From positions 11,275,483 through 11,339,482 of the forward strand of contig CM082582.2 in assembly GCA_040954595.2 (NCBI GenBank): 64,000 nucleotides of DNA. Reading direction: 5' to 3'. Shown here in pieces: positions 21,886 to 58,776 of the stretch (the stretch's first letter is position 1; each line of letters starts with the position of its first letter). Both the position numbers and the translations under genes were made by a program. Under the pieces are notes generated by a model. It was not told the origin of the DNA. It saw only the letters and a program-made list of their open reading frames with translations, and ran no database searches. The stretch is from Balanoglossus misakiensis (Eukaryota; Animalia; Hemichordata).

Positions 21886-24800
21886 ATGACAACACAGGAG
21901 GGGGGCACCAATAGCAACACCCCGAAGTCGATGAACCAGCTGGAACAAGGCGAGCCTCTGGTGGGCAAGAAGATGGCGGTGCGGCCGAAGAAGGGAAAGA
22001 GGAAGCGGCAAGGGCGGGAGCGCCTCCGCAACATCGTCAGGGAATTCGGCAACCGGACGTCGTGCCACGGACTCCCGCGCATCCTGGGCGCCAAGTCGAC
22101 GGCCGGTCGGTTGGTGTGGCTGTGCATATTCACCGGCTCCTGCTCGCTGTTCTTCATCCAGCTCCACCAGCTCGTCAAGCTGTTCCTCAACTATGACGTG
22201 GCGGTTCGCATCGAGATGGGCACGGCCAAAAGTCTGGATTTCCCGGCGGTGACGCTATGCAACACGAACAAACTGAGGCTTTCGGAGATCGAGAAGAGCG
22301 AAGAACATCATCGACTGGCCCTGACCAATCCGGCCCACCCTCAAACCATCTACAAGTCGTTATCTTATGAAAGTGAGTATGAACCAACACAGTCACATAA
22401 ACCTACCAGTAGTACAGGAATACTTTACACAATCATAGTATCTGTTGTTAGTTTGGTTTAGCCTTTAATGATTACGACCGCAATCCCTAGTGTGACATCA
22501 CCTCTCAACCATCTCCTCCTCAGTCGTCATTTACATTAATCCAATCTCTGAATTGCGCATTTGTAATTACCTATCCTTTGACGTGTTCGCTATTTGACCA
22601 GTCAAGGTAGTTCAGAGATAATCAGAATATACGGAATTACTAACGTCGAATAATTCGATAAATCGGTTCACTGCAAATTGAGTTTTATCTTTAAGGACGA
22701 GACAGTGTGTTAAGATTGAATTGCAATGACGAACAACCTTGATGGTATCATACGACACATTGTCGTAATTCTACTTTAAATACGGAAAATATGTCGACAG
22801 TCAATCTACCGAAAGTAACCAATCAAACCAGTGACGCGAAGAAACTGGAATAATATAATCAATTTTGTTCAGCTGTCTCTCACCAAATATAAAAATCGTT
22901 TACTCTAAAAATGGATATTGGGTCGTTAAAATGTATTAAGGTCCACAGAGAAAAAAAATCGATCCACACAGATTTTCAAGCTTAAAACAACAGCCTGATG
23001 CCATATAAATTTTAGTAATTTTAGTATTTCCCAGTGAACAGGAAAAAACGTTCAAAAATTGTAATGTGACGACTTTATATACATGCACCAATTGCAAGTG
23101 GCACAGCGCTGCTGACGTAACCAGACACACAGACACCATTCTGACGTAGATACAATCTGCAGTTTACTTATTTGTGAGGCGTAACAACTTTACGCAGCAT
23201 TATATCTAATCCATTAAATTTGTCTACCACTCCGTTCTTTTCTTTCCACCACGTTACAGCACCATGCCTGGAAGGAGATTTCTCATGCGGCGACAGGGAG
23301 CGTTGCATCAAGTCTCACTTGGTTTGTGATGGCTACGTCCATTGCTGGGCTACCCTTAGCGACGAATTCAACTGCACTTACCGTAAGTATTGTCATTAAA
23401 TAATATTTAATTACGGTACAGAGTAATTACAATAAGTCATTTTTTATATCTGAGATGAAAAGATGAAAGTTCAGATCTCTAATACCATTAATAAGATCAA
23501 GTTTGTAGTGAAGAACTTTTTAACAAACGCCTCTCTGTCTGTACAAACTGAAAGAAAATTATTCAAGATGGCGGCGATCGAAACTTTTCAAAATTCACAT
23601 CATTGCATTTCGTTTGGGAATTCCCTCCCGGGACTTCAATTTAATGACAACGCCGGCGTCAAACAATTCACAATCTCCTGAAAAGGGTAAAGGCAAATAA
23701 GGCATGGCATTTTCAGCATGGTGTAATATCCTTTCTCCCGCGGCGAAATACTCTCAATTCCGCTGGGAATCACTTCTGTAATAACGGCAAATATCAATCT
23801 GACGAGGACATTTTAATTAGTCGGGTAGTTTTACTGCAATCAAACAAGCAGCAATAATTCCTACCATTGTACTCTATGTGAGCGGGTGGAAATAATATTC
23901 TCGTCTAATTAAGGTTTGTATCATATGTCACGGAAAGTACATTTACTTTTATATGTTGACAGTGAACTTGTATTGAAGTAGCACCGTTCGATTTTGGCCC
24001 ACGTATACGTGTAATAAAAGAGTTGTTTACTGTGCATTGCCTGTCTACGAAAGACACCTCATCTACTGACAATGTTCGTTTACATCCACAGCACCGTGCG
24101 GGGAGAAACAATTCGACTGCGGACAAGCTGGTCCAACCGGTGTGTGCATAGCCGAGTCCCTGACGTGCAATGGCGTGTGGGATTGTTTCGATGGGCGCGA
24201 TGAAATGAACTGCGGTAAGACTCGACAGGCTTCAAGTCTAAACCCACGACAGTCGATTTTTAATAATGAAATTGACTGCTGTGGCACGCGGCGCCACCTG
24301 CCGCAATTATGATGTTCAATTTGCTTGATAGGTATAATTGTAAATCGCAAAGACCTGTCAAAATCGACCTATTTCCCTTCTGTATTGGGGTTAAGGTGGT
24401 GGTGCATGTTACAGTATGGCATATTCAGAGCAGTTTTACACTTTCTTCTTGGTTTGCTCTAGACGGTCTGTCTGGCTGGATGGAAAACTGAACGTGTTTT
24501 CTTCAATGTTTAGATATTTGTAGAGGAGGAAAAGGTTGCGACCAAGCTCAGGGCGTCGGGTGGAAATGTGTTCCTAATGGACACCTTTGTGACCATTTCC
24601 CGGACTGTGCTGATGAAACCGACGAGAAGGACTGCGTTAGAGGTTAGTAAATTGGCTTGCCTTTGATTGAATCACTTTTACGACTGGAACCTGTGTTGAG
24701 GGATTTTGACGGCGCATCTCGCCGCACATTCCACGCCCTTTTGGTGGCAAGGATTGTCATACCACAAGAAAATGATTTAATGCGGATTTTACGTCTTCCA

Positions 24801-27800
24801 CGTGGCACATATTGTAATTAAAGGTTAATCAAAATGCGCATAAATATAAAAACCATAATTCGCAAAGGTAGCATTATATTAATTGATCGTAATTTAGTTG
24901 GTAATATGACATTTTTACGACAATGTTGGTAACTGTAATTATTTTGCGAATTGGCAATATTTACTTCAAGCCTTATTGACGGTTATAACCACACTTTGTA
25001 AAAGAGAAGATGGTTTCATCTGTCACAATTACCGAATGACAATTATGCGTCCATATATCAAGTTGGTCCATCATTCACGCACTGCACCATCATGGCTCGC
25101 GGCAACATACTATATATGGAGGCTCTGTCATATCGGAAATGTGTGCTCATTATTAAATGAATTGTAATTAATCAATTATATTGACGTAGAGGAAACTTAT
25201 ATTGGCGAATTTCCTATAAATATCGAGTTTGTTATAAACTAAGGTTAACCAGACGTTCCATATTTTCTTGCACACAGAACCGATAACCGAAGAACAGAGT
25301 AGTATTACAAAGGTAATACGATTTGAAAAGAACGGCATGATATATTCTCCCATGTACCCGATTTCTACTAGAGCAGAGACGCATATTGAACTGAGACTCG
25401 GATCCACCCACCGGAGATATTGGGACTGCGTACAGTTCACTTTCTTCGATATTGACATCAAGCAATCAGAGAACTGTTGGGACGAATACGTCAAGGTAAG
25501 CCCCCGTGTTCAAAACATAGCTCCCGTGTTCAAAAAAGTCTCTCTGCACCTGTGTTATCCTTTCCATTTTCTACAGTTTCTATACACAGCAATATACACA
25601 TGTAACCTCATTCACACGTTTCAGATTAGGAAGTTAAGAGTCGTCTCGCCGACAGTCGTTTTAATAAACTAAAGGTGTTTTCTCTATTAGCTGGAGGATG
25701 TCGATTTCCCGAGACTTTCCGACAGATTCTGTGGCACCCAGGCGAATGTCCAGTGGCGATCACGGACACGCGGTGGCCTCGTGCGCGTTACTTACAAGAC
25801 AGAGGGAGAGTACAGCGGAAGAGGGTACAGCGCCGAGTACAGGCTGGTGATCTGCCGAGCCGACGAATGGCGTGTGGAGCCCTGGGGCGAGGTATGTAAT
25901 AGCACCTGGGATTTTCCACACGAGTCAGTGAAACATATCACTCAACAAGTACGAGGAGTTATCTTTGATTCTTGCCATATGAGATTCTTTTTCTCACGTG
26001 GCCACAAAATGTGCCGAATGTGAAACATTGAAGACGAAAATTATTGACTGTATACCCGATGCCGTTTAGTCACGGTTAAGAAAACCAACCTTGGTCGTGT
26101 TTACAATTTGCGAAATGCTTGTTGATTATCAAAGCTAATGTTCCACGCATAAACCGTCGTCAGATCACCGAAAACCAGTCCATAATTCACGTCACGTGGT
26201 TTCTGTCAATGAAGTCAGTGATAATATCAGCAGCGAGGAATCCCAACTGAAGATTATTTGCACCAACTGCCAGCCTTGGCCTGGTCGTTCAGGCGATAAA
26301 CTGTGTGAATGTGAGACCAGTCGTGTCATTGCCTCGTTAATTATGCGGTGGACTCATTAAAGCTCAATTCGCCAACATTTGAAAGCCGATAATTATCTTG
26401 GAATCAGTTGGAAATGATTGCCAGCTTATAGTAATTTAATGTCAGGATTGATTTTACATGTACATGGACGCTTGCGATACAATAACCTCGAGCACACGGC
26501 GCTGCCAGTGAGGGCGGTATCTATATTGTACCGTAGTTTAGGGTGAAATGAGCTGTTGATATGTTTTGAGAATGAGATGAAAAAAATCACATATGTAAGA
26601 CCCCTTCTCTATACATAACCATGCATCTTGGTCAACACCAGTATTACCGAAAAATCGTGGTTCTTACGTTATACAGCCTGCAAAGTCAAAAATTTTCAAG
26701 GTTCTAGGTTATAAAGTCTTAATTTTAGTCTATGCAATGATAATTTCTCATTAAAAATTAACAATTACCGCTCTATAGCTCTCTCATTTCATCAAGGTTC
26801 TTAGATAGGCAGTTTCATGCATAGCCGTGGTTCTTTAAATTGTTGTTGTATTTTGCTAGTGTTCGGTGACGTGTGGTGGCGGCGTGAAAACTCGGGCTGT
26901 GATTTGTTACTCGTCACGTGGCATCAGGAAATCTGCCTGGGGGTGCAACGCCTATGGTTACAAGCCGAGCAGCCAGACGACGTGTAATGTCGAAGCATGC
27001 TACGACGAAGGTAAGATGTACGGTTCCAATCCTCAGATTTGAATCACAGTGACGGCAAAAGCGATGTAAAACAATGTTTACGTCGACAATCTGTCTACGA
27101 TGGTAATGATGACATCTCGGAGTTTGTTGTTTTCAGACACGTGTGGGCAAAAGTTCAACATCAACGAGAGAGAGATCACATCGCCCAGATATGCACGGAA
27201 CTATCCTCACAGTCAGCTGTGTCAAGTCGACATTGAAAACGCAGACAATGGATGTGTTTTGATCACCTTCAGTGATTTCTACCTAGAGAAAAGCCAGGAC
27301 TGCACTGGTGATAGCGTGGTCGTAAGTATGTCTAGTGCACTTGGCATCATGGCGTAGTCTCGGTTACCCAGACTGCACTTGTGGGCTCGCTTCCGGTCTG
27401 TTAGCGGCCGGAAGCGAGCTCAAAGTGCAGTCTGGGTAACCGAGATTATCACGGCGAAAAGAAACACAAACTGAGAGCATCATAGATGAAACAGTCGCAC
27501 AAATCCACTCCCATGATTTCCAGTAATGTGTTATTGTGATCTGTTTGCAATTTTCTTTATCATTAGATAGAAGACGCGACAGTACCTAATTTGACCAGGC
27601 GATACTGTGGAACGCAAGCGCCACCGAGATGGATTTCGGCCTCGTCCCACGCAAGGATTGTGTTCAAATCTGACGAATCGCAACAGGCCAGGGGATTTCG
27701 GGCAAATTACGAGCTGATTACACATTGCAATGTTTGGCATGTTGGTAAATGGTCAGAGGTGAGCGATGCGTTGGTTTCATTTGCATCTGTCTAATTTATA

Positions 27801-30800
27801 AACTTTCATACCAGGCCTTAATTTACCGTCTCAGTGCATTTTTAGGTTTTTGTCCTAGTGTCACTATGAGTTGGCTCTCTTATTCCTCACCCGACTTGTC
27901 TCGCTGATGTCAAAATGCTGATCGGAAACAGCACCCCCAGTGGCGAAAGTTGGGAATCTTTTATATGCATCTAAATCATTCCATTTCAGTGCAGCGTAAC
28001 GTGCGGTACTGGCGTGCGGTTTCGGAGAGTCGTGTGTCGTAACAGAGCTACATTCAGCAACATGTTACCGACAGATTGCCAGGGGCCCATACCGGACAAC
28101 AAAGAAAACTGCAAACTGACCACCTGCGAAAGAGGTAAATTGTTTCGTGCTTTTTTTTCTTTTTGATCATGTGTGAGGTAATTTCACCAGCCAGTACATA
28201 TTAAGCGTCGAAACACAACTTCAAAGTGAATGTACATTTTCATCTCCATAGAGACAAATTTACCGGAAGAGGGATACAAGCAGAACTGGTATGCAAAGTA
28301 TTTTAAAATAACACGGAATATGAACCTGTACAACGACTTCAAAAGCAACTACTATCGCGACCACGGATTTGGTCGTGTCAAACAGGAAGATCCTCCAGAC
28401 TGGAAAGGTAAGGTATTCAATGTCGTTGAGGGCTTATGTACTAGATTTCTTATGCGCCTGAAAGATCTTTAGTCATTGCTCTCTTAATAACAGTATTGAC
28501 TGTAGTATGATTTACTTTTTATAACATCCAAATACCTTGTGACAACACTCGTAAACTCTTAAAACTGATATAGGCCTAACAACGAAACGCAGAGATCCCG
28601 TGAGCAGTGCTTGTAAAGTGATATGTTATTTGTACATTCGACATTCCAGGTTTTCTGACATTCAGTTCAACTCCTGATAACAGCGATCTGAGAGATGTCA
28701 TCAAGCTGACGTCATCGGAAATGTCTCACTTCGGTCACCAGGTGGAGGACTTCATCATACAATGCACTTTTGACGAAAAACGCTGCAGCCATGCGTAAGT
28801 TCTAGAGCCTGTTGTCGCCATATCATCCAAGGCTAACCTGGCCGTTGTTCAACAGTGTTAGATGCGCTAACATCTCTCTAGTTAGATCAACTCATACTTG
28901 CCAAAACTCTAAGACCCCAAATTATCTGATTCTCTATGTTCATTGCAGTGACTTCCGTACATTCCAACATGACATATATGGGAACTGTTTTACTTTTAAT
29001 CACGGCATGAACCATACAGTTATACGAGAATCCAAGAGGCCGGGACCACAGTACGGTATGTTGGCTACGATTCCTTTCTAATTGTTAACCAGGTACTAAA
29101 ACAGTCACATCTCCTACGATCCGGTATATGGACTAGTGACACCAGATATATGTAACACTGATATACTCTCACTTCTTACACCTCCCTAGGCCTCAAACTG
29201 ACCATATTCCTCGAACAACACGAATACATACCGTTGTACGGACAGGAAGCCGGTGTGAGGGCGCTGATCCATTCACCGGACATCACGCCATTCCCAGAGG
29301 ATGACGGGATAACGGTCAAACCCGGTGTCAAAACAGCCATTGCAATAAGACAGGTAGATAGCAGTATATTATGTATTTCAGACACAAATTACACGCCATT
29401 GTAAACACAGTGGTGATATGCAGTTTCAAGCCACGATATGCACGTATTATATTTGCCCACTTTAATGAACCATTTCCAAGTACATGCATAATGTCATAAC
29501 TGATGAGGCTTGGTCAAACCAGCAATATACAATCCGGCAAATGAATAATATGACAGTTAATAAATATTAAAGTTATTGATAATCGTATTTCGCTTGTTAC
29601 GTCCATGATAGGTCACGATAGCCAGGAAAGGTTACCCGTACGGAAACTGCTCCAATGTTCTGAACGATGAAACTACCAGTATATTTCCTCAATTTTATAA
29701 TTATTCTTCTTTGGTAAGTGCAAATGTAAATATTAGACTGACTGACTGACTGACTACATGACAGCACCCCATTCTGCATTAAAGCCTTCGTTCTATGCAA
29801 AACAATGCAGGTCAGTGATGTGAAACAAATATTACGTAACAAGACAATCTTTGGGGCTTCTTCTCACGCAGGCATGCCAGAAAACGTGTCTTCATCGCTC
29901 CATCGAGAAAGAATGCGATTGCGTAGACACAATGCTTATGAACAACACACGGTGTAAGTTGTTGGACAAGGATCAGGGTGAGCAGCGTCAACTTGCCTAG
30001 CGGACAAACATTTATTCCATTTTATATGCATGCTCTTTGAACGATAACATAAAAATAGTAGACTCTACAAGATTTCCCCATATTAAAGGACTGGCACGAA
30101 ATACAGACACGTGGTTCCGCATAAGAGTAAACAAAACCATTGTTCAGTTCACCTTAAATGAACATTTGCTGTTTCTATTTTCAGAGCTATGCAAGCAGCT
30201 GATGGCGTATTTTTACCAGTCTGGCGTTTTGCCGTGCGATTGTAAAGTTCCGTGCCGGTAAGCTGTTCCACTAACACTATAATTTGGAAGGTCGAAAATT
30301 TATATTCACGAATTATGAGCAAAATTGTTGACATAGCACCAAATGGCCATTATGTGTTTTGCTGCTGTTAGAAATCATCTCCATGCATCAGAAACTACAC
30401 TGAGAAAAGTACGGTCATTCACAGATGACATTTTGTAAAAACACTCTAATAATAGGTAAAGTGCCAGCGTTTTGCGCTTGATAAAATATTATTTTGACCT
30501 TTAGGCATCGATTATAATGCTGTTCTTATTTTGGAGTCGTAACGTGTTGCATTGTGAACGGCTTTCGAACCTGGCCTGCGAAATTAATTATAAGAGACGT
30601 GCCACGTGACTAAACAGTCTGTTGCCTGTCTTTGTATGAAATAATGGGGTGTAACACAACTTTCTGTGTGTATCATGTGTTGTCACGAACGTACATCACA
30701 GGCTACCTGAACCCGTTAGATTACGGTTTACATCTCACATTTCCGTGTTCTTTTTTTCAATAAAAAGAGAAATGACGTACCAAAGCACAATATCGCAATC

Positions 30801-32028
30801 GTTATGGCCTTCCAACACATATGTGGTAAGTATGCTGTGCATCTCTGAGAAATGGGAGAACTTTGCCCAGTGTTTATTCGACAGTATTTTGACTTTGACT
30901 TATATTCAGATCAAGGTCGTCTACAGCAGATAAACTTTACATTGGTTATTTTTAATCGATCGACAATATAGCCATTCAAACATGCGATTCGATTCCCATG
31001 AATAAGAATCATGCTGATTGAGCACTGACAAAATTGTTATTTTCTATTTTTATACAGAGCGGTTTAATTCAAGAACTTCGTCATATAAATCCCAAGGTGA
31101 CGAGAACCGTGGTGGATGGCCGATCAGCAAGGTACAGTGCATTGTTTATACGTTGTCCATATATGTCAAATCCTTTTAACCCTTTCACCACCAGTTCCCT
31201 CTATTGAGGTCCACCTTTACCATAGAAAACGATGGATTTGGACCAAACCATGGTGGTGAATTAAGCCCTTGAATAATAACACGCTGTCATTCCTGCTTGT
31301 GATGGCAGTCTGGTTGATAAAGTGACGAATACACAAATACGTCACTTACATGTGGATAATTGTGATTCCACTATTTTTAACATTTGATTTATTTGCTCCA
31401 CAGAGAAAATCTGGTCAACCTTGAAGTCTATTTCGAGGGTTTGAACTATCATAGTACAATCGAAACAATCGCCTACACGGTGAGTTCAATTTAATAACAA
31501 GGTGAAAATTTCAAATAGCGAGATGGCATGCAGATAATCAACTCTCATGAGTTTGCATGTCAGATGACTTTGCCGCGAAAAGAAACCCTCTCGTGACAGC
31601 GATTAAAATCCGTTGAATTTGCTGTTAATAATTTCTGTTAAACACCAATGCGTCATGGTATCATCGTGACGTCAGAAGATGTCACTGTTGGTCAGGAGCA
31701 CACATAATTTATGCGCGAGAAAACGCGCATCGGGCATAGAGAGGCAGACACAATTAAACATAACTGCAGGTACTTATGAAGAGATAAAAATATAGCTGCA
31801 TAGCGAGATAACGGCGTTTGCAAGTAGACCTAACAAGAGCATCCCGTTCCCCTGTGCCTCCCGGTTCTTGTCTGTCAACAGATAGAAGAGCTGTTAGGCG
31901 ACGTGGGCGGACTGATGGGCTTGTTCATCGGACTGTCGGCAGTCACGGTCTTCGAGTTCATCGAGTTCCTATTGGACCTGGTGTACTACGTCACCGTGCG
32001 ATTTCGTCTCATCGGTCAGGTGTACTGA
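21886..32028 (+). CDS. DEG/ENaC (amiloride-sensitive Na+ channel family) subunit A with LDLa x3-CUB-TSP1-CUB-TSP1 insert, 21 coding exons
   Basis: Exon 1 (21886-22372): TSCHGLPRI (HG motif), TM1, FPAVTLCNTN. Insert exons 23260-28134. Then [45 protein letters not shown], thumb cysteines, WPS, LEVYFEGLNY, and TM2 LLGDVGGLMGLFIGLSAVTVFE. TGA 32026-32028. Confidence 0.93.
23260..28134 (+). other. Inserted extracellular module exons of channel A (3 LDLa, CUB, ADAMTS-type TSP1, CUB, TSP1)
   Basis: LDLa exons 23260-23382, 24092-24214, 24514-24642 (CDG..C....SDE.NC pattern). CUB 25278-25891 (IYSPMYP, FCG, GRGYSAEY). TSP1 WRVEPWGE|CSVTCGGGVKTRAVIC. CUB 27137-27758. TSP1 WHVGKWSE|CSVTCGTGVRFRRVVC. Confidence 0.9.
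27355..27448. mobile_element. 94-bp palindromic MITE, hAT-like, in an intron of channel A
   Basis: Near-perfect hairpin TAGTCTCGGTTACCCAGACTGCACTT ... AAGTGCAGTCTGGGTAACCGAGATTA, flanked by an 8-bp direct repeat TCATGGCG (27347-27354) / TCACGGCG (27449-27456) with one mismatch. Confidence 0.85.
31176..31264. mobile_element. piggyBac-like (TTAA) MITE remnant, with a related one-ended fragment at about 2738-2774
   Basis: TTAA-CCCTTTCACCACCA ... TGGTGGTGAA-TTAA (right end truncated). The Kelch intron copy ATGGACTTGGACTAAACCATGGTGGTGAAAGGG-TTAA supplies the full right end. Confidence 0.7.
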
Positions 32029-42000: not shown

Positions 42001-42777
42001 CGCTTTTATCCATTTGTTTGTATTAACGTACTTGAAAAAATGCTACTTTGCAGCCGGGTCTGTTTAAGATTCTACGCCCGATCAACCCTAAAGTGCAGGA
42101 AACAGTAGTGGGTGCAGCGTCAGCTAGGTAAGTATATTTGGACTCGCATATCAGCAAATTTTATGAGATCGTCGGAAAATAGAAGAATGGAAGAAGGGGA
42201 GGGGGAGAGAAACTGATTGACTGACTGACTGAGCGACAGTCAAACAGAAATGTAAATGAACATCCATTCTTTCAAAAATTATTCATATTAGATTATGTCA
42301 TCCGTTCTTTTCAGGGATAACCTCTTGTCATTAGAGATTGCCTATGAAGAACCCAACTACCGCAATACTATCAGCAGTCCCAGATACTCGGTAAGGGCCG
42401 TTGTTGTGTGGTTTGCATCTCTCCACTCTAATCAAAAACCAGACGTATTCTATTAACTGATGTCCTAATAAGGCACAATGCATTGTGGGTTGATTTCATC
42501 AAATCCATCATGGCGGAATGATCTGATTTCAGTACTCTGTGATCCGTTCTAGATTGACCAGTTGACTGCTGACATCGGTGGGTTATTCGGCCTGTATCTG
42601 GGCATCTCCCTGATAACAGTGGTCGAATTCATAGAGCTGGTATACGACTTGTACTGCTACTTCATCTCCTGGAAAAGAGTGGACGAGAAAAAGCAGAAGA
42701 CCAAGCAGCGAGATCACAAGAGATATGACCTTGCACCGACCACCGCTGGCCCCGACGAATTTGGAACCCGCGTATAA
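36031..42777 (+). CDS. DEG/ENaC subunit B with LDLa x3-CUB-TSP1-CUB-TSP1 insert, 21 coding exons, HG motif reads HC
   Basis: Exon 1 (to 36544; start could be ATG 36031, 36055 or 36106): TSCHCLPRII, TM1, [10 protein letters not shown]. Insert exons 37040-39781. FGHQLEDLVIQCSFN, YGNCYTYN (40714-40820), GLKLTLFIEQDEY, WPSNKH, TM2 LTADIGGLFGLYLGISLITVVE, ends GTRV*. Confidence 0.92.
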
Positions 42778-45001: not shown

Positions 45002-48000
45002 ATGGGCCTACAGATTCATGACGCTCCTGCTGACATAAAATCTCGCGGTCCCGGCGAAAGAAACTGCGGCAATCTCGTCAAACGATTCGGGATGTCGACA
45101 ACGTGCCACGGACTTCCAAAAATCATCGTCGGCGACTCGTTACCAAAGAAGTTGACCTGGCTGGCTATATTCCTTACCGCGGTGGGAGTCTTTACATTCC
45201 AAGCAAGCGAGCTCGTCAAACTGTTCCTGGAGTATGACGTCAGGGTGAACATTGAGATCGGAACGGCGCCCAGTTTGCCCTTCCCGGCGGTGACGATCTG
45301 CAACACCAACAAGCTGCGGCTGTCGGCGATCGAAAAAAGTGAGCACAGACCTCTGGCAACGACGGATCCCGACCACCGGGACAGTATTCACAGGCTTCTA
45401 TCATATGACGGTAGGTTCTCTGATCAGCTTTTGTGAATGCCATTGCACCATACCGTACGCATGTATTACCTTGGGTTTTATTAAATATATCATGTTTCAT
45501 GTTTTTTTTCCAACCGGAGATTAATTTTAAATATAAAAGGATATCAACTCATGTTATCATGGACCCCTATACATAATTTTCTTTGTTTGCTTCCTTCAGT
45601 CCCTTGTTTATATGGAGATTACGAATGTGCTGACGGTCAACGCTGCATCAAACAACATTTGAGATGCGATGGTTATTTCCACTGCTGGGATGGCTTCAGT
45701 GACGAAGTCAACTGTAATTATCGTAAGTGCATTCATAATTAGCTTCAATCATAATTTCGCGATTTGGGAGTTGGGACTTTTCATCTGTAACCCGAGACCT
45801 TCACGTTAACATATTGAAGTTTTCATTATTAATAATTGTGTACATTGAGAAGAAAATTGCTTATATTTGACTTTTAACAACAAGAAGTTGCTGAATTATT
45901 TACTTAATGTGTTTCCCCCAGCACCATGTGGCGATGAAGAGTTCACCTGTCACCGAGCAGGTTTCCATGGTATTTGCATCCCTGAAGGAAAGCGTTGCGA
46001 TGGCTTCGATCATTGCCCAGACGGAGAAGATGAACAGAACTGTCGTAAGTATTTACGCCAATAGAGCAAAGCTTCCATCGTGCATTTTCTCGTTCTTCGT
46101 GCTGTTTTGGCAATCACGATATCAAGATACTGTGTGCAACTTTCAATATTTTTTGTTTTATTCCTACTTGACCAGCTGTGTGCTCCGGTGGTCTTCCTTG
46201 TGACTTTGGACTTGGTGCTTCCGGTTACAAGTGTGTGCCAGTCGACAGAAAGTGTGATCGGTTTCCCGACTGTGTTGACGGAACCGATGAAAGTGGTTGC
46301 GATTTTGGTGAGTTGTTTTTACTACGAATTCAGCAATTACCATTTGGCTAACAATCGATCATGTGAGGAGTTTGATTGCATTTTTGATGTTTTCTTTTAC
46401 AGGGGACGACTGCATGCTAGGGATGATGTTAGCCACGAAAACCCCGTCGATATTGTACTCGCCAAATTATCCCTCAAACTATAAGAATAATATGTCGTGT
46501 ACAACACACGTGACAATACAGAATAAGGGACAGTGGTACGGGGGAGATGATGATGCCTGTATCTTAGTTTCCTTTTTGGAGCTGGACATCGAGCAGAGTG
46601 TAAACTGTGAAAATGACTACGTCGAGGTTGGTTGCCATACCATCAGTTAGTTGTCTTCTATTTTGTTATACCTTGTCACTTGTACTATCAATTTTTATAC
46701 ACCATCCGTTATGGACAGAATTTGTGCGGTTGTTAAAAGGCAATAGTGAACCAGAAAGAGCATTAAGGTTGTATAATATTACTGCTATCCATTCTTATTA
46801 CCTTGTGAAACAGACTGAAGATTTCGAAAACGCGAATATTACTGTACGATATTGCGGAAGCAAGACGCCGCCATCTTGGATTTCGTCATCGAGTGACGTC
46901 ACCATCAAATTCGTCACGAACAGCAACGTTGCTGGCAGGGGTTATCGTGTCCAGTACTCATCGACCAGTTGTCCTTCATCGCGTTACTGGGAAGTTTCTC
47001 CTTGGAGTGAGGTTGGTACAGTGGTTGTGTGAATGACCATGTATGTATCAATGTTGTTCCTTCTTTTACTGAATGGTTAATATTGGAGCCCACCAATTAA
47101 TGTAAAGTTCAAGGCTTACAGTGTGCAACTCTCATTTCTCTATCCAGTGTACAAAGACCTGTGGTGGAGGGTACCGACACCGTGGCATTGCTTGCAATCA
47201 CGAGGGATCCATATCCAATCTTCCTTCGAATGACACTCAAGCAACGAAGCAATCAGACCTTGACGACGTCTTCGAAGTCGACCACGCTGCCATCTCTCTG
47301 TGTAAACCACCCGGGTCATTGCCTGTGACCGCAGAGTCTTGTGAAACCACATTGTGTCCTGGAGGTAAGTTACAAGTGCTGTTTGAAGCTCGAAGTATAG
47401 TAATTCACCCATACGCACCACTGAACTTGGTCGATTGAATCAGTTTTCTTTATAAAACATCCCATTTTTCGCCCATATTTGTATATTTTCAGAAGATTAT
47501 TGCGGCGAGGTGCTGAACGAATGTTGCAAGGAAATCACGTCACCAGGGTTTCCAAACACTTATCCGCCCGATGTGGACTGTGTTACAGAGATTATCAACG
47601 ATGGAGGGTGTATTGTTCTCAGTGTGATTGAACTGGACATTGTGGACAGTGAGGATTGTCATAAGGATTATCTCGAGGTATACTTAATTTGGGGAGTTAT
47701 AGCATGATAAATGAAATAGACCATACATGCACCCGTTTATCATGTTCGCCACACAGTTGTATCATTCTCCAGCACCTTATGGTGTAAGTTTTAATAGAAA
47801 CCGTTTTGTTCATATCAAACAGTATGGTGAAATTCAACCGGACGGAAGTACAAGAAGGCAACGATTTTGTGGACGACAATCTGGCTTGCGAATGATGTCG
47901 TCATCAAGTTCGGTTCGTCTGATGTTCCATTCTGATAGCGTTGCAACTGGTAGTGGATTTAGAGCATCGTATGAATTTGTACCGTGTGGAACTTGGCACA

Positions 48001-51000
48001 TGTCCCCATGGAGCCAGTGTTCGGTGACTTGTGGATTCGGGAAACAAGTCAGGCGTGTTCTGTGTATCAGCCGAACGGACACGAAGCCAATCGAAGATCA
48101 CTTCTGCCACGAGGAAAAGCCTGCATCAGATCAAATGTGCGATCAAATTTGCAGAGGTACGTAATATAGTTTAAAAAGGTAGAAAACTGCGCTTTATATG
48201 GATTGCAGCTGTTGACCAATTGATCTGTTTTCAGTGTGACACTTAGTTTATATATTGTACTAGACCTCAGATGTACAATTTATTGAAACCCAAAGCCTTC
48301 AGCTGGAAAGAATAAGAGGGCTGAATGTACCATCTGATCAGCACGACTACAAAACAATCCTTGGTGAACTCTCAATATTTTATGCTCACTTCGAGTCTTT
48401 TTTTCTGTATAAAGTTCCCATGCCCCCTACCGACTTACGCAACGATTTCTGGGAAATTTACGAGAACCACAGACACATCACCGAAGATGTAAATATGTAC
48501 ACGGATTTCCTGGACAACTTCTACAAACCCAATAATTTCGATCGTGTCGACAACGTTCCACATCCTAACTGGATAGGTGAGTCTGCATCATTGAAGCAGT
48601 GACGCTTTTATAGCAAAAACTCGTCCACGGAGTAATGAGAATGTCGTGAATATCCAACAATTTAAATGTTTCGCTCTTGCAAATGAGTAATGCGGAGATA
48701 ATACGATACAATTTCCAGTGATTGGTTTTATGGATTGTTAACAACTGATAAGCGTTTTTTTCTGGTTATCAAAATTATTTACAGATTTTTTGGCATTCAG
48801 CTCAAGTCCCGATTACAGCGACTTGCGAAATGTGCTGCGCCTGAACAGGGACGAAGTTGCCAGGTTTGGACACCAAGCTGAAGACTTCATCATACAGTGT
48901 TCGTTCGATGAAATCCGCTGTGACTATACGTGAGTGTGTTCACTTAATGTTTCCGTGGCCTGTCCAATATTTTGTACACATTATTGTGCTTTACATTGCT
49001 TCGAGCATCATCATCGACGAGGTAGTTACTGGTAACCGAACGTTGAGTTCAGTTATTGATCATTTGTACTCGACTAATTTTGGCAGGGACTTCCACGCGT
49101 TCGAAAACGATTACTATGGCAACTGCTTCACCTTCAACAGTTGGCAGCTGAACAATCACAGTCAACTGAATTCTACGAGACCAGGAAGTCGATATGGTAG
49201 GTACTATTGCTCTAATGAAATACAATGTTAAATAGTATAGTCTTGGTTGAAAATGTGAACTCGACTGGATACTCAAAGCAGCACCATCTACTACATGAGT
49301 CTTATACACTCCATCAAGTTCATGAAAGGATTTCTAATTGATAATTTTATGCATTGTATGAATTTGTTTTGCGCGTTTTATGATCAATTCGATAAACCAA
49401 AAGCAAAATCTCTCCAGGTTTGAAGCTAACACTGTTTGTCGAGCAAGAGGAATACATACCACTGTATGGGCAGGATGCTGGCGTGCGTGTGTTAATTCAC
49501 CCTGCTGATGTCACACCGTTTCCTGAAGATGAAGGCATCACCATTTCCGCTGGTTTTAAGACATCTGTTGGAGTAAGAATGGTGAGATTATTTCCCTGCT
49601 CGTTTTCAATACTTGCCATGTACATACATTCACACATACATATATGACAGGATACAAATGAGTTAATATCATGGGGAGAACATACTCTTGGACAACTTAC
49701 CATAACTATCTTCCGTGTATTTTATTTCCTGTAGGACACTATAGCAGGTCCAAGCAAGCCATACACAAATTGTAGTGATCAACATGATTTCAAATCAATC
49801 TATGGGACAGGATATCAGTATTCAGATTTGGTGAGTATTTGGTCTTCAGGATGAAGCTAGTAATCTTGTAGTATCGTCCTATGGTCATTACTGTGATGTA
49901 CCAGAGAATAGTTCACGTCATCAGAAATGGGCTCGTTGTAGATATTACATTTTTTATTGCAGGCTTGCCACAAGACCAGATTTCAGGAATACATCCGCGA
50001 CGAATGTGGTTGTGTTGATACTATGTACATGGAGGGCAAATCTTGTAACGTCGCAAATTATAAAGAAGGTAAGAAAGCAATTTTCTTTTTACTTGTTATT
50101 TCTGTTAACTTAGTAGATGTGCAACAATGCTTGATATTGTACACATTTTTCTAACAGAAATGTGCCGACAATTAATGGAGTTTTTCTACCAGAGAGGTTT
50201 GTTGTCGAATGACTGTAAAGAACCCTGCAAGTAAGTGAATTACCCTACATTACTCGATATCAACTCATTCATTCTACTCACAATATGATTAATCTTTATA
50301 TGTAAGCGTTAACTACAGGAAAAGCAGGTGATCTTTGGGCCAGTTTATGACAACCCTTTAACCTTTTTATCGTTCTTAGAAAAGTACAGTACAGCAAAAT
50401 GGCGTCTCAGTCACAATGGCCATCCAATAAACATGTGGTAAGTGTTTCTTGCCAAAAGGTATTTCTCAATATTACGTAAGATGTGTTAATTTTGAGTGTT
50501 TGGCTCATGAATGTACTAGGCCAGCCACACAAAGTCAATATTGAACTTCGTCTATTTCAGGGTGGTTTAATAAAAGTATTGCGTCCACTAAACGAAAAAC
50601 TTCGAAATAATGTTATAGATGCAAAGTCGGCGAGGTAAGGGTTGTTTTATTTCCATTTTGATAGTCATATGATGAAAAATCTGCATGTTTCCTTAACGTG
50701 ACCTTCAGAAATATGGCTGACAGGATTGTGACCGGTTGTTATAATGCAAAATAGTGGATATTGTTTTCTTTTTATCTTGCAGAGACAACCTAATACGTCT
50801 TGAAGTTTACTTTGAAGAACTTAATTATAAGAAGATCTCCAAGTTACCCGCATATACGGTATGTTATCGATTGCAATTGCTATGGACATTTACACAAATT
50901 TCAGTCACAATTCGTGGCAGTGTGCGTTTATATCTACCGCCGTAATTATCTTTCAACAGATTGAGGAACTTCTGGCAGATGTCGGCGGTATACTTGGCCT

Positions 51001-51118
51001 CTACATTGGCATGTCGTTAATAACTGCTGTTGAAGTTCTGGATTTCTTCGTGGCTGTTTTACGTCATCTTATGCGCAGGGCAGGAAACAGAAATGTTCCA
51101 GACGCCAGCTCTATTTGA
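45002..51118 (+). CDS. DEG/ENaC subunit C with LDLa x3-CUB-TSP1-CUB-TSP1 insert, 20 coding exons
   Basis: Exon 1 [12 protein letters not shown]1, [10 protein letters not shown] (an upstream in-frame ATG exists at 44918). Insert exons about 45600-48157. [48 protein letters not shown]2 [22 protein letters not shown], ends ASSI*. Confidence 0.93.
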
Positions 51119-52127
51119 AAACGTCTTGGTTTTGGTTTAGGAATGTGTCTGCCTTTTGTGCAAACGGCTGCAGTTATTGGTTTGATTGGTATTGTTATTT
51201 CACAATGGTTGTGACGATGCTGGTTCTCAAAAGTTGATTAATTAATTTAGTGATTCACCAAAGTCAAACAAATCAGAACTGCCTAATTGACTCGAGGGTA
51301 TGAATGAAAACGCAGTGATTACTGCCAGTTCAAAGTCATTGTTAAAAGGGACAAACTGGACTACGGCATCAAGATGAGGATTATTGCTCCTACTCAAATA
51401 ATAATTCTGAACAGGATCTGGTACTCTGATGAACCTCTTTTACAATGTCATGTAGTTGTTTGTCTTTTACACTCAATCTGCATAAAAGTAATTAAATTAT
51501 TCAAAAGGTCACACGTTCAAACACCACAAAAATTGGTTTGATTTCTTGACTTCTATGCAAGGTTAACACCATAATGTGTAAATTGTTCTCGAGGACCACA
51601 GAGTGCCCATGAATGAACAAGTTTTCAGTGCGAGTTGTGTGCAATCGACTCGACATTATTGTACATGTCATATGATGAGCTGTTGTCGAAACCAGCTACC
51701 CTAAAAATGCTGTCCACATTTTTTTTCAGGCATAAAACTGCTGTTGTTGCTGGTTTTTGTTTGTTTTGTATTTACAGTTCTGGGTAACTTCATCATTGGA
51801 CTTGTCGACCAAGGAAGCCTTCATGCGCATGGGCATCGTTGCTACTGTAGGCCTGAGTTGTTGATTGCTGGAGGTATAGCCAGCCTTCAACTAAAATAAC
51901 AACCAGTGACAAAAAATGCTGGCTGTTCGCGCCCGTATGCACGTACAATGTACCGTATACGTAATGGTAATTAGAGGTTCGTCCTTTTGAATTCTACCAA
52001 TTATACATATGTAATACGTGACGCCTTCACTTGAGGCGAATAATTGGTGCCCGGACTTATATTAGACACCGGAGAGTCTATTATCTGTGATAGCTACGGA
52101 GACAGGGAACTACGGACGGAAAACATC

Positions 52128-55100
52128 ATGTCTCTGCCTAATGTTAATGTCACGGAGACATCAAGCGATGTCGCAGCCGAGTCGGATCGAGAACACTTCG
52201 GTTATCTGCTCAGAAATTTCGGAGAGACGGCCACCTGCCACGGTCTACCCCGGATAATTATCAGTCGGTCTCTGTCGAAGAAGCTCGTCTGGCTGCTCAT
52301 TTTTCTGGTTGCCATGGGAGGTTTTACATTCCAGGCCTACGAACTTATCAAACTGTTCCTCGCGTACGACGTCAGAGTGAACATCGAGATTGGCACCGCC
52401 GCCAAACTGGCTTTTCCAGCCGTCACCATTTGCAACGCGAACAAGCTGCGACTGTCAGAAATTGAAAAAAGCGAACACTCGCCGTTGGCGAAGACGGACC
52501 CCGAGCACCCGGACAGTATCCACAAGCTTCTGTCCTATGAAAGTAAGTCATGGTAATCTAATTCTGGTACTCTATAGTTAAGCCATAATTTAAACTAAGA
52601 GTCCTGTTTTAAACACTATAAATAGTTGCAATTGTGTTTATTAATTGAGCTATAAAGGATGTTATCCCACAATACATTGACCGCAGGTTACCATGATGAT
52701 AGTCTGACGGATGACTGTCCAAACAAGTCAATAAATACATCGTGTTTTTGTACAGGAATGTCGCTTCAAATTCACCTTTTCTCTCAATATTCACAATGTA
52801 TGCAAAGTTAATATCACTCACTGTATCACTGCACTGTGTTACCAACCCGTAATATGTGCACAAACGCTGCTATTGTTGTCATCTGTGATGAGCATATTGA
52901 TACTTGATTATTTATTGCTTTGTGTTGCCCCCGTCGCATACAGTGGTGGCTGTATGCTCATTTAATTCGTACCCGTTTAACCTCTCGGTGCGTGTCCTCA
53001 ATACGTTAGGCCCGTGCTTACATGGAGATTATGAATGTGCTGATAGGAAGCGTTGTATAAAGCAACATTTAAGATGTGATGGCTATTTCCACTGCTGGGA
53101 TGGTTTTAGTGATGAGAGCAACTGTACTTACAGTAAGTATGTTATAATTTGGAAGCTTTATGGAATGTGTTTAAGTTGTCTTTGATGAAATGTATAGCTT
53201 CCGAAAACCATGCAGGTAACACAACATGCAGTCCCACCATAATGACGGTTAATCTGACAAAGATCCATGTATGCCAACAGTACTTCTGAGAAAAGTAGCA
53301 TTCCTTTTCCAACCATGGCACCTTAATTAACATTTCTCCACCCAAAGCTAGGTGTGGTGAGGGTATGTTCAACTGTGGACAGGCCGGTTTCCATGGAATT
53401 TGCATTTCGGAGGAAAAACGATGCGATGGTGTCCGTGATTGTATTGGAGGCGAGGATGAGGAGAACTGTCGTGAGTACCTTTTGATGGAAATGTTTCACA
53501 AATCACTGTTTATCAATTTCTCGGACTGAATAATCAGAATGTTCTTGGTCTTTCTTGCCCGTTCTTGCTAATAATAGTTTGACGCCATTTGCAACAATTT
53601 AACCCTGTCGTGACCTTACTCTCCTCAGCCGTGTGTTTAGGAGGAGTCCCCTGTGACTTTGGACTTGAAAGTTCAGGTTACAAGTGCGTGCCAGTTGACA
53701 GTATGTGTGACCGATTCCCTGACTGCATTGACAGAAACGACGAAAGATACTGCTCTTTCTGTAAGTACCATATGGCTAATGCCAAGATCATCATCACTCT
53801 TGTTTATAACATATCAAATGACATATGTAATACTTCAGACTAATTCGGTGTTGTTGCAGTTGATGACTGCATAGATGGGCGGTTGCTGGCCTCGACAACT
53901 CCATCGATTTCGTATTCAACGAACTATCCGTCGGACTATGCAAACGATTACACGTGTGTGATGCATCTGACTGTTCCGCCGTTCAATTCTGGAGAAGAAA
54001 CTGAGGACTGCATCTTTCTGTCTTTCTTGGAACTCGATGTCGAACACAGTGAAGGCTGTCAGAAGGATTTCATTGAGGTTGTGTGGGTTTTTTCATATGT
54101 TAAATCTTCACGCTGGTGTTCTTCCATTAAACTTATTATCTCGCGTCAAACTGTTTATGCAAAATCTGCCATGTAGACAAAAATGACCGTTTACCGGAAA
54201 GAATGTTGTCATTTCTCTTTTGCCCCATTACCAGATCCGGGATTCTTCAAATCCGAACATCACTGTGCGATATTGCGGAAGTAGTATTCCGCCATCTTGG
54301 ATCTCGTCGTCAAGTGACGTCGTGATCACATTTGTCAGCGACAGCGATGTTACTGGCAGAGGTTATCGAATTCAATATTCATCGGTCAAATGCCAGTCAT
54401 CACACCACTGGGAGCTATCTCCTTGGAGCGAGGTCAGTTTACCATGCTGCAAAACGTATACTTTTGCAGTTCAAGTAGCCCCAACATCATGGCCCAACAA
54501 CTATCGGAAATAGTACCGGAAGTAGTCTTGGATAAAGTTTCCTATGACATGTTAAACGTAAACCTTACAGGATTGTCCAGAATTTTGTAAATTGACACAC
54601 TTACACGTAGATTAAACCTGCTTTTTTCTACGTATACTATAGTGCACTCATAGTTGTGGCGGAGGGCATCGGTTTCGCAACGTCCAATGTTCAGTCGTCA
54701 GCCCAGCAGAAGACACGGTGTGTGAACCCCCAGGGTCTTTGCCTGCTGCAGTGGAGTCGTGTAACAACGAGCCTTGTCCTGGGGGTAAGAAAATGAGCTT
54801 ATAAAAGTTTGTCAGATTGCAAAATGTGCCTCAAATGCGAAATATATTTTCATAAATTTGCACAATTTTTGTATATATAATCTGACACGTGTTTCCATAA
54901 AAAATAACCTCTTCATGTTTAATTTCAAAATGTAGATACTTTCTGTAATAAGCTGCTCACTGAGTGCTGTATGAATGTGACGTCACCGGGCTTTCCTAAC
55001 GATTATCCACCGGATGTGGATTGTGGGATAGACTTTCTCAACGAAGGAGGGTGTATAGTCCTTAGTATCACCGAAATTGACATTGTTGACAGTGAAGATT

Positions 55101-57032
55101 GTCATAAGGACTACCTGGAGGTAAGGGAGTGTTCATAAATTACTTCCGGGGAGCGAAGGATTTTCCATGCGAATTTCATTAATACCGTTTTCAAATTTCA
55201 TTTAATTTGTCTCGTTTGTCTTCTTCACACAATAGTATAGAGAATTCCAAACCGATGGAGGTGTACGAACAGAGCGTTTTTGTGGACAGCAGTCTGGCCT
55301 GCGAATGATGTCTCCGTCGAGTTCCGTCAGTCTGTTGTTCCATTCTGACAGCCTTGTGTCTGGCCGGGGATTCAGAGCGTCGTACGAGTTTGTACCCTGT
55401 GGAACGTGGCATATGTCTGAATGGAGCGAGGTATGAAATATGGTGCTTTCTGTTGAGTGTTTTACTTCCTCCCAGTAAGGGTGCCTGCTATTACAGTTAG
55501 TGGATGATATACAATATTTCGTTTAGATGACCTGTGCAAAGGCCAAACTGAAAGTTTCCCCTTTTCGGTTCTCTTTCCCTCCACGATTTGACTGTTTAGT
55601 GCAACGTGGCGTGTGGCTACGGCGAGCGAATCAGGCGTGTTGAGTGCATCAGCCGAACAGAGAATAACCGGATCGAGGACAGTTTCTGCCAGGGAGAGAA
55701 ACCGGCAGTACAACAGCCATGTGATCAAATATGTGGAGGTATTTTTTGCATTTCTTATGTACGTTTTTGTCACGCTCACACCACACCCCTTTGTTCAGCA
55801 TGTATTATGGTAATGCAGTGCGCCATCTGTTGTTGAACCCAGTTCCGACACCTGTGATCAGTTCCAGCTCCATCCGTACTGATTTATTTAAATTCTTTTG
55901 CAGTCAAAGAACCCCCGAAAAGTACGTACGACGACCTCGATTTCCTTACCCAGACACACAGACACATCACAGACGACATCGCGCTGTACTTGGACTTCTT
56001 AAACAATTACTACAAGTCGAATGATTTCGACCGCGTGGAGGAAGGAAACGATCCTGACTGGATAGGTAAGTGTCAAATGCGTACACAGGTTATGCAACGT
56101 CACTCGTTCAGCGATTCAGACAACACAGCAGTGGATGGCAAGCTAATTAGCGTGTAAAACAAGTATCGTGTTTTCTATCCACTATAGGATTCCTCTCGTT
56201 CAGTTCGAGTCCCGACTACAGCGACTTAAAGAAGGTGTTGCGCTTAACGAAGGAAGATGTTGCCAGGTATGGCCACCAAGCCGAAGATTTGATTCTACAG
56301 TGTTCATTCAACGAAGCATATTGTAACTACAGGCAAGTTAATGCGATCATTAAACTCGCGTCTCAAGTATACATGTACTTATACCAATTGCTAAATCCAT
56401 TTAAATACAGTCACATGTCCGTACATGCCAATACTAGTACCAAGAATGTAACTTGAAATTTTGTAATAAATCCTTTATAGAGGCAGCTCTCTATAATTGT
56501 AAAATTGCACATTTTTACCTCAATATTGTATTGACTGAGCAATCTTGCATTTTTTTTTCTGCAGCGACTTCTACGTATTTGAGAACGATCATTTCGGGAA
56601 CTGTTTCACCTTCAACAACTGGCAGCTGAATGGTCAAGATTTTCTGAACTCCAGAAGACCGGGAAATCGATACGGTAATCAATGTTCCATCTAATTATCC
56701 ATACTGTTTGTTAATATTGATGCGACTCTCCTTGTTTCATTCGTAAGTTAGCGATTTTTAAATTAAGGCATTTAACTATAAATTTGTCTGGTGATGCGTA
56801 AACTAATCCAACCGATTTTCTGTAGGTTTGAAGCTGACTTTGTTTATCGAACAAAACGAGTACATACCGCTGTACGGACAGGAAGCCGGCGTGCGTGTTT
56901 TGATTCACCACCCAAGCATCACACCCTTTCCGGAAGATGAGGGCATCACGGTCGCTCCTGGTCTGAAGACCTCCATCGCATTAAGATTGGTATGACATTA
57001 TATCCTAAAGTGAAAAATAATTTCTGGTGTTG

Positions 57033-57064
<32 letters not shown>

Positions 57065-58776
57065 GGTGGTGGTGGTGTTGTTGCTGCTGCTGGCGTTGTT
57101 GGTGGTTGAAGTTGGCTGCGACTCTTCACTGTACATAACCAGTGCACTCTTTTGAAGTTGAAAATAGCATACTACGATTAATTAGTATTTCTCAATCTTT
57201 ACAAATGTTTTTTTTTTCAGGAGACGCTGGAGAAGTTGGGCCCGCCATACAGTAAGTGCAGTGATGACCATGACCTCCACTCCATATATGGACTAGGTTA
57301 CAGATACTCCGACCTGGTTAGTATTCAAACTTAAACTCAGTAAGCGTCGCGATTTCGGGTTTATATCCTATGTTCTGACTGCGCTTAATTCACTGACGAT
57401 TGCTTCGTCCCACTGTTTGTTGCAGGATTGCCACAAGAATAAGATTCAGGAATATATACGCGATGAGTGTGGTTGTGTCGATACAATGTACATGGAGGGC
57501 AAACCATGTAATGTTGCCAATTACAAGGAAGGCAAGTAGACTCTTATTCATCCTCGCAATATAAGCCTGCGTTTATCTGAACTCAACAAGTTAGAGACAA
57601 CTTGGCGTATCCAACCGACTAGCAAAACAACAATCCTCTGTACCTCAAATAAAAAACAAAGAGAGCCAGCAACGAAATGTAGTTATTTGTATTTCTCGTA
57701 CGCGCACACACATTGAGTTGAAATTGTTCTTTTTAAAACAGAAATGTGCCGACAACTGATGGAATTTTTCTACCAACGTGGTTTGCTTTCAAACGACTGT
57801 AAAGATCCCTGCACGTAGGTGAACGTTTAAGTTATATGATATATGTAATGCTTTTTTGAACCATCTATGTGTTAATAGATTCCAAATACTTCGACGCTTT
57901 GATTTGTCAGATTTGCCTGGTACACATGTTATAATTATTTGTTGGGTGAAATATCGAGAAAAAATGACGCCCCACTTGATCTTCCAACTTCAGAGAGATG
58001 CAGTATCGCAAGACAATCTCACAATCCCAGTGGCCTTCAAGTAAACACGTGGTGAGTAGCTTTTTGGCTTTACCCCAGCTCTTATTAAAACGATTGCCTT
58101 ACATCTGTAAAAGCTTCAGTACGTGATAATACGTCGCGTCGGAGATATTGCTTGATGCTGTTTCTGTTCTTACAGAATGGTCTGATCAAGGTATTGCGCC
58201 CTCTAAATGATAAAGTCAGAGAACACGTTGTGGATGAAAAAACGTCAAGGTAAAGACACTTAACGTCTATCAGTTCCTGTTTTCAACAAAGTAACCCCAT
58301 TTAGAATATAAGGTTCCTTTTCTTCGAGAAGATTTATGGCTTTGATAAAATTTCTCTGATTTCTGTCTGACTCTATGTTCGTGTTGCAGAGACAACCTAC
58401 TCCATCTTGAAGTCTTTTACGAGGAGTTAAACTACGAAAGGGTGACTGAGTCGTCGGCTTACACGGTAGGTTACTTGTCCCTGCTCATTAGCATGTTCTT
58501 GTTCCTTCCACGTCTCTTTCTGGACTTGCAACGGCAGTGCGTAATTACTAGTAGTACCTCAGTGTATTTTAAGATCAAATACCGAGTTTTCAACTTCGCA
58601 GTTCGTAATTTTATTTATTTTATCAGATTGAAGAATTACTGGCGGATATTGGCGGTACATTGGGACTTTACCTCGGAGTGTCTTTGATAACAGGTGTCGA
58701 GATCCTGGAGTTCGTCTTAAATGTCTTTCGCCATCTACTGTGCAAGACGGTCGGGACCAAATCGTCCAACGTCTAA
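52128..58776 (+). CDS. DEG/ENaC subunit D with LDLa x3-CUB-TSP1-CUB-TSP1 insert, 21 coding exons
   Basis: Exon 1 (52128-52542) ATCHGLPRII, TM1, [10 protein letters not shown]. Insert exons 53010-55738. YGHQAEDLILQCSFN, FGNCFTFN, GLKLTLFIEQNEY, LEVFYEELNY, TM2 LLADIGGTLGLYLGVSLITGVE (58627-58776), ends SSNV*. Two GC-AG introns. Confidence 0.93.
57027..57107. repeat. Compound trinucleotide microsatellite (GTT)n(GGT)n(GCT)n, intronic
   Basis: Directly visible run in a channel D intron. Confidence 0.9.

Follow-up and report, generated by a model that had tools for sequence, protein, structure and literature searches.

Four tandem genes in a 64,000-nucleotide stretch of the hemichordate Balanoglossus misakiensis (GenBank assembly GCA_040954595.2, contig CM082582.2, positions 11,275,483 to 11,339,482 of the forward strand; hereafter the window) encode predicted DEG/ENaC channel subunits, each with an arm of three LDL-receptor class A repeats and a CUB-TSP1-CUB-TSP1 run inside the finger domain. 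We refer to this insert (LDLa x3-CUB-TSP1-CUB-TSP1) as the cassette. A six-frame scan of the window returned FPxVTxCN four times and GH-x-C-x-F four times on the plus strand, with cysteine-rich frames in between. Gene models were built by spliced alignment guided by NCBI homologs, some boundaries in genes 2 to 4 being placed by hand, and exons were joined on the basis of genomic DNA and homologous gene models. None of the four models contains an internal stop; 77 of the 79 introns are GT-AG and the other two, both in gene 4, are GC-AG. The string of intron phases is identical in genes 1, 2 and 4, and gene 3 has one intron fewer, lost within its second CUB-TSP1 unit.

Gene 1 (window positions 21886-32028, plus strand, as are all four genes; 21 exons, 1053 amino acids (aa) predicted) belongs to subfamily A of the three defined below, and its protein is 75% identical to Ptychodera flava XP_070574535 (P0001). 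Exon 1 (21886-22372; Pfam ASC, E 1.9e-20) encodes the HG motif, the first transmembrane helix (TM1), the first strands and the first finger helix. Exons 2-4 (23260-24642) encode one LDLa repeat each and have phase 1-1 boundaries, exons 5-10 (25278-28134) encode CUB-TSP1-CUB-TSP1, and the resumed channel core (28252-32028) supplies the rest of the finger, the palm, thumb and knuckle, and the second transmembrane helix (TM2) with its GxS filter, which is kept in all four genes (G-L-S in gene 1). Gene 2 (36055-42777; subfamily B; 21 exons, 1091 aa predicted) has its LDLa repeats at 37040-37785, the CUB-TSP1 units at 37996-39781 and the core at 40015-42777 with a G-I-S filter. The corresponding parts of gene 3 (45002-51118; subfamily C; 20 exons, 1055 aa predicted) lie at 45600-46307, 46403-48156 and 48415-51118 (G-M-S), and those of gene 4 (52128-58776; subfamily C; 21 exons, 1026 aa predicted; 64% identical to gene 3) at 53010-53760, 53860-55738 and 55910-58776 (G-V-S).

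Pfam searches of 41 single window exons provided a test that is independent of the exon joins. All four first exons matched ASC, from profile position 1 to about 90. Ldl_recept_a was matched by 12/12 LDLa exons, including those of genes 2 to 4, and 11 exceeded the curated cut-off; CUB was matched by 14/16 CUB half-exons and TSP1_ADAMTS by 8/8 TSP1 exons. The two finger exons of gene 1 had no Pfam match on their own. In a further search, the C-terminal half of ASC was matched in all nine downstream core exons tested. The sequence-only reading of the window had proposed four genes of this architecture, spliced in frame through a cassette that sits between two ASC halves at the finger, and the open models, the 79 introns with matching phases, the module exons and the presence of both Pfam halves in every gene bear it out. 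Its figure of about 490 aa for the cassette agrees with the models (486-512 aa; 489, 501, 512 and 486 aa in genes 1 to 4), and its range of 1000-1080 aa for the subunits was a little narrow, since the models span 1026-1091 aa. An HG motif, which it had placed in all four genes, is present in genes 1, 3 and 4 and in Saccoglossus P0002; gene 2 and Glandiceps P0008 have HC instead. Two trivial explanations were rejected: pseudogenes, by the open frames and by nonsynonymous differences per site (pN) far below synonymous ones (pS), and chance motifs, by the Pfam E-values and the common intron phases.

The structure of the gene 1 ortholog P0001 was predicted with AlphaFold2 from a 50-row alignment (predicted local distance difference test score, pLDDT, 85.8; predicted template modeling score, pTM, 0.62), and this single model was used for Foldseek and superposition. 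The Pfam ASC match of the ortholog (E 5.6e-86) falls in two stretches. In the model, residues 134-160 form the first finger helices, the cassette follows them, and the chain re-enters the finger at helices 667-734, which precede the GH motif, the helix numbering at the insertion site being inferred. Against human ENaC gamma, the split core aligns with a Z score of 33.8 (root-mean-square deviation 2.8 A over 349 of 389 residues, 24% identity); against Aplysia FaNaC the score is 32.9 and against ASIC1 about 30. Over ENaC, FaNaC, ASIC and BASIC the core scores range from Z 25 to 34, Foldseek places ASIC1 first, and one CUB module reaches Z 17-19 against solved CUBs. The core fold is predicted to be intact, with palm, beta-ball, thumb, knuckle and a cysteine-rich thumb. 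Docking of LDLa1 on the split core of P0001, run without the alignment, scored 0.00 and gave no verdict; a search of the ESM Atlas gave no usable match.

In short relatives the two anchor motifs are about 100 residues apart, versus 622-650 in the cassette channels, and a Trp-bearing helix after the insert is common to both. This span and the common helix argue that the ancestral finger was kept. In ENaC, the GRIP domain sits between finger helices alpha1 and alpha2 (PMC6197857), and the peptide site of FaNaC1 lies at finger helices alpha1-alpha3 (PMC11026163). From secondary structure, we infer that the cassette site probably corresponds to the GRIP site.

Across 13 full-length proteins, the most conserved segment is LDLa1 (mean identity 0.71), followed by its linker (0.62), the palm, thumb and TM2 (0.57-0.58), LDLa2-3 (0.53-0.56) and the CUB and TSP1 modules (0.38-0.45). 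LDLa1 is thus more conserved than the pore, and the CUB/TSP1 part is variable. The comparison of genes 3 and 4 gave pN of 0.058 for LDLa1 and 0.161 for the core. Most of the ambulacrarian members of the wider family that were listed have a look-alike LDLa1 39-54 residues past FPAVT. LDLa1 and its linker may therefore be a fixed coupling piece, with the distal modules setting specificity. LDLa3 retains, in all four window genes, the Asp that is usual in calcium-binding LDLa repeats, and 3/8 CUBs have the full Glu-Asp-Asp calcium triad, as judged by eye. In all four members of subfamily B (gene 2 and three orthologs) the C-terminus reads G-T-x-V, which by consensus we take to be a PDZ-type motif. 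The first TSP1 of gene 3 (window 47148-47364) carries a loop insert of about 25 aa, and longer inserts occur at the equivalent place in P0004, P0005 and P0007.

A search with gene 1 exon 1 among longer proteins gave 3 matches of 271 candidates: uncharacterised proteins of 1031-1080 aa from P. flava, Saccoglossus kowalevskii and Glandiceps talaboti, each of which combines a two-part ASC match with LDLa, CUB and TSP1. We widened the sample by a channel-core search (83 matches of 2926 candidates) and a search of 50% representatives (best 150 of 12,225). Among the matches listed, acorn worms, sea stars, a crinoid and a brittle star combine LDLa with kringle, PAN, F5/8C, SRCR, CUB, ShK-like or HYR modules, and one annelid DEG/ENaC protein has a C-type lectin. 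Both ASC halves are present in 155 proteins; custom profiles found LDLa, CUB or TSP1 in 61 of these, isoforms and window models included, and in 61/61 the modules lie between the halves. The finger site accommodates more than 1,000 inserted residues. In amphioxus, the modules that separate the ASC halves of P0042, P0060 and P0074 (1260-1580 aa) are F5/8C, kringle and link. Outside deuterostomes, LDLa occupies this place in P0178 (Panulirus ornatus, a lobster), P0143 (Symsagittifera, an acoel) and the gastropod proteins P0173 and P0174. Acorn-worm P0027, P0033, P0038 and P0076 are LDLa-finger channels with about 500-600 extra residues before TM1 (in P0027 with an fn3 match at 30-110), which are either a real N-terminal extension or fused gene models.

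Trees were built from the channel core only, among the family members collected here and without vertebrate ENaC, ASIC, FaNaC or any other characterised channel. For the FastTree analysis (137 rows) we removed 43 rows that were near-duplicate, isoform or broken, along with any row that had less than 270 aa of core; the IQ-TREE analysis (49 rows) added the partial proteins P0023 and P0092. In IQ-TREE the CUB-TSP1 channels form one clade of 17 rows (support 100/99), nested in a larger ambulacrarian group (94/99), most of whose channels bear LDLa. Within the clade are three subfamilies, A (gene 1), B (gene 2) and C (genes 3 and 4), with supports of 100/100, 100/99 and 98/81. Each has Saccoglossus, Glandiceps and Ptychodera members and the harrimaniid-ptychoderid split is dated to 373 million years ago (PMC4729200), so the subfamilies are about 373 million years old or older. 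By the tree and the 75% identity of gene 1 to its P. flava counterpart, the animal of the window is probably closer to Ptychodera than to Saccoglossus or Glandiceps. Contigs of equal size suggest that A, B and C share one chromosome in P. flava, and likewise in G. talaboti. The gastropod LDLa channels branch apart, which suggests a separate insertion; the lobster and acoel proteins join on long branches. The window channels belong to a wider ambulacrarian clade in which a fixed first LDLa is followed by variable modules (kringle, PAN, F5/8C, SRCR). The sequence-only reading recognized neither the large clade, with its many other cassettes, nor the three old subfamilies.

Outside the channels, the ortholog's best match is a P. 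flava protein of 3793 aa that carries reprolysin, TSP1 and CUB-TSP1 repeats, the arrangement known from sea urchin EBR1. The CUB-TSP1 repeats of EBR1 are its proposed bindin-binding part (PMC13672419). We use "EBR1-like" as a label for this domain architecture. The CUB-TSP1 units of the cassette are 28-38% identical to those of EBR1 and its acorn-worm look-alike XP_070531950. We compared 30 cassette CUBs with 288 CUBs, drawn by a search with P0001 itself and comprising cubilin-like and other-channel CUBs but no NETO CUBs; 26 had their best match among the 45 EBR1-like CUBs. An EBR1-like gene is the likely donor, and the CUB-TSP1 pair may have entered an already LDLa-bearing channel by exon shuffling. 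In P. flava, the EBR1-like gene P0084 and the subfamily-C channels P0005 and P0228 are on contigs all of size 40,999,305.

We hypothesize, at somewhat less than even confidence, that these proteins are receptor-channels gated by an extracellular protein or glycoprotein through the CUB-TSP1 arm. The ligand would bind the variable CUB-TSP1 part, the conserved LDLa1 and its linker would relay the movement to the finger, and a sodium-conducting pore would open, as in FaNaC. Subfamilies A, B and C would likely co-assemble as a heterotrimer, which subfamily B might anchor inside the cell through its PDZ-type tail. The conserved proximal LDLa and linker, the variable distal modules and the EBR1-like origin of the CUB-TSP1 units give this idea indirect support. 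More speculatively, acorn worms, echinoderms and amphioxus might have a repertoire of DEG/ENaC channels whose pores sense extracellular proteins or glycans directly through shuffled finger modules; the window genes would have taken their arm from a gene like that of the egg bindin receptor and would form a three-subunit channel with a protein ligand, possibly from gametes or mucus. We regard this wider proposal as possible rather than probable.

Several points weigh against the receptor-channel reading. The binding modules suit tethering, clustering or trafficking equally well, and the clustering of the subfamilies does not demonstrate co-assembly. Calcium-binding LDLa repeats usually carry Asp at a motif position where LDLa1 has His. 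Some subunits may conduct poorly, given an altered HG motif in gene 2, P0006, P0007 and P0008 and an altered filter glycine in P0006. The pTM of 0.62 means that the placement of the arm on the core is not fixed by the model, and a repeat AlphaFold2 prediction from 13 aligned rows reached only pLDDT 56.0 and pTM 0.41. As to origin, a tree of CUBs alone (318 rows, 110 columns) lacks the resolution to name the donor, and the CUB comparison database was assembled with P0001 as the query. Finally, the support that homologs lend to the splicing comes from automated gene models, of which P0009, P0023, P0092 and P0163 are split or partial, and the cassette is flanked by phase-1 introns at both ends, so that skipping it would stay in frame and could give a product of 540-590 aa.

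The main rival to ligand gating, which we consider a serious but lesser candidate, is a built-in tether: the arm would be steadily bound to matrix or mucus and force would gate the channel, making it a mechanosensor. TSP1 and CUB are common matrix-binding modules, and the arm, about 490 aa with 40-43 cysteines, would stand at the top of the finger. The degenerin tether model provides a precedent, there with separate matrix proteins (PMC10148893). However, the diversity of modules at this site across paralogs resembles a recognition repertoire more than a single mechanical linker, and the distal modules diverge fast.

A rather unlikely role for the arm, in our view, is that of a built-in auxiliary or clustering device comparable to NETO or LEV-10. 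It would then position the channel at a synapse or apical membrane or adjust its kinetics, while another stimulus, for example a small peptide or ions, would do the gating. The ortholog CUB weakly matches NETO2, a CUB and LDLa protein, in the PDB (E 9.5e-12), and the conserved PDZ-type tail of subfamily B fits such a role. Yet the insertion lies at the gating corner, LDLa1 is more tightly constrained than the pore, and the cassette CUBs are closer to EBR1-like CUBs than to the cubilin-like or other-channel CUBs of the comparison set, which NETO CUBs lay outside. NETO1/2, LEV-10 and SOL-1 are CUB proteins, with or without LDLa, that act on ligand-gated channels; they are separate auxiliary proteins of glutamate or acetylcholine receptors and are not known to contain TSP1, whereas here the modules lie within the DEG/ENaC chain and include TSP1.

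An autoinhibitory plug removed by proteases, like ENaC GRIP, is less probable still. The region is probably that of GRIP, and P0004 has four arginines within a TSP1 loop. In two cassette-less sea-urchin relatives, P0231 (Diadema antillarum) and P0115 (Strongylocentrotus purpuratus), a run of at least six arginines occupies the cassette's finger position and may be a cleavage site parallel to that of ENaC. In the four window genes, however, no furin consensus occurs before or just after the cassette; within it, R-x-K/R-R is matched only in genes 1 and 4, both times inside the second TSP1, and not in genes 2 and 3.

That the cassette exons stand outside the mature channel, being usually skipped or expressed as a separate nested or truncated product, we consider very improbable despite the phase symmetry and the split NCBI models: ten full-length NCBI proteins include the cassette (six from P. 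flava, two S. kowalevskii loci and two from G. talaboti), no cassette-less two-half short member of the clade appeared among the 21 matches listed in a search of 30-578 aa proteins, intron 1 offers no signal-peptide exon candidate in three of the four genes (the exception, gene 4, has a single ATG, and its donors are weak), the intron after the cassette has no poly(A) hexamer in any of the four, and the whole-cassette pN of 0.19 against pS of 0.69 between genes 3 and 4 indicates purifying selection across it.

Returning to known systems, ENaC resembles the window channels in its fold, an extra finger domain and three old subfamilies, of which those in the window may likewise form a heterotrimer. 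The insert differs, being about 490 aa of LDLa, CUB and TSP1 here and a beta-stranded GRIP domain in ENaC, and the polybasic R-x-K/R-R of ENaC alpha and gamma has no counterpart flanking the cassette. FaNaC also has the same fold and takes its ligand at the finger helices (PMC11026163). Its ligand is a short peptide in a pocket, with no appended modules, whereas the large folded modules here suggest that the partner is a macromolecule. ASIC1/2 and BASIC are the top PDB sequence matches for the core (E about 1e-50) and have in common with it the GxS filter and an acidic TM2 entry. ASICs have no finger cassette, and a His at H73 serves as a criterion for their proton gating (PMC10507113). In an alignment to ASIC2, no His was found at the H73 equivalent in any window gene, the aligned residue being Val or Leu. 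ASIC-type proton gating was rejected as the default.

EBR1 and acorn-worm XP_070531950 resemble the cassette in alternating CUB and ADAMTS-type TSP1, each window gene having two such units. EBR1 differs in being a secreted, ADAMTS-like protein with reprolysin and many repeats; the window cassette is two repeats inside a channel, and three full-length orthologs gave no reprolysin match and have TM1 and TM2. Nematode EGAS-1 to -4 likewise fuse extracellular modules to an ASC domain, a likeness drawn by the sequence-only reading that proved weak. In the EGAS-like protein P0083, EGF repeats precede an ASC match confined to the C-terminal part (profile 175-454), and the protein lies far off in the tree on a long branch, whereas the window channels keep both halves and TM1 with the modules internal. 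Single-exon Pfam searches found no EGF match in the window cassette exons. EGAS proteins gave no currents in oocytes (PMC10424705).

No description of this architecture was found in literature searches on the architecture, the accessions and EGAS, supplements and subscription papers lying outside their scope. In the excerpts available, neither "LDL" nor "kringle" occurs in PMC9949801, PMC10507113 or PMC9822975, "LDL" is absent from PMC10148893 and PMC8791634, and "ENaC" is absent from PMC11175523 and PMC4729200. The claim that no characterised DEG/ENaC carries the cassette therefore holds for the literature searched. The architecture itself is already in NCBI from three acorn worms, in gene models that are either uncharacterised or misnamed ("LRP2-like", "degenerin-like").

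For the DEG/ENaC channels characterised so far, the known gating stimuli are protons, small peptides, proteases, bile acids and force. Peptide gating is exemplified by FaNaC1 (PMC11026163). If our reading is correct, interchangeable receptor modules in the gating finger would bring macromolecule gating, or a tether that is part of the subunit, to this family. The arm can be deleted or swapped, so these channels would allow a direct test of the old question of whether pulling on the finger, or binding to it, is enough to gate. The three old subfamilies would also mirror, in an invertebrate, the three subunits of ENaC.

Three other genes were recognized in the window. A Kelch-like gene with BACK and Kelch repeats lies on the minus strand at 1350-3348. 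A GH16 beta-1,3-glucanase-like gene lies at about 60650-63220 on the plus strand; its exon at 61192-61524 matches laminarinases (E 1.7e-5), and its exons had no Pfam match when searched singly. On the plus strand at about 10870-15300, a CAP-domain gene (Pfam CAP at 11308-11616) continues, as judged by eye, into a Thr-rich stretch and a hydrophobic helix. A TGG/TGT microsatellite occupies 57025-57106 within an intron of gene 4.

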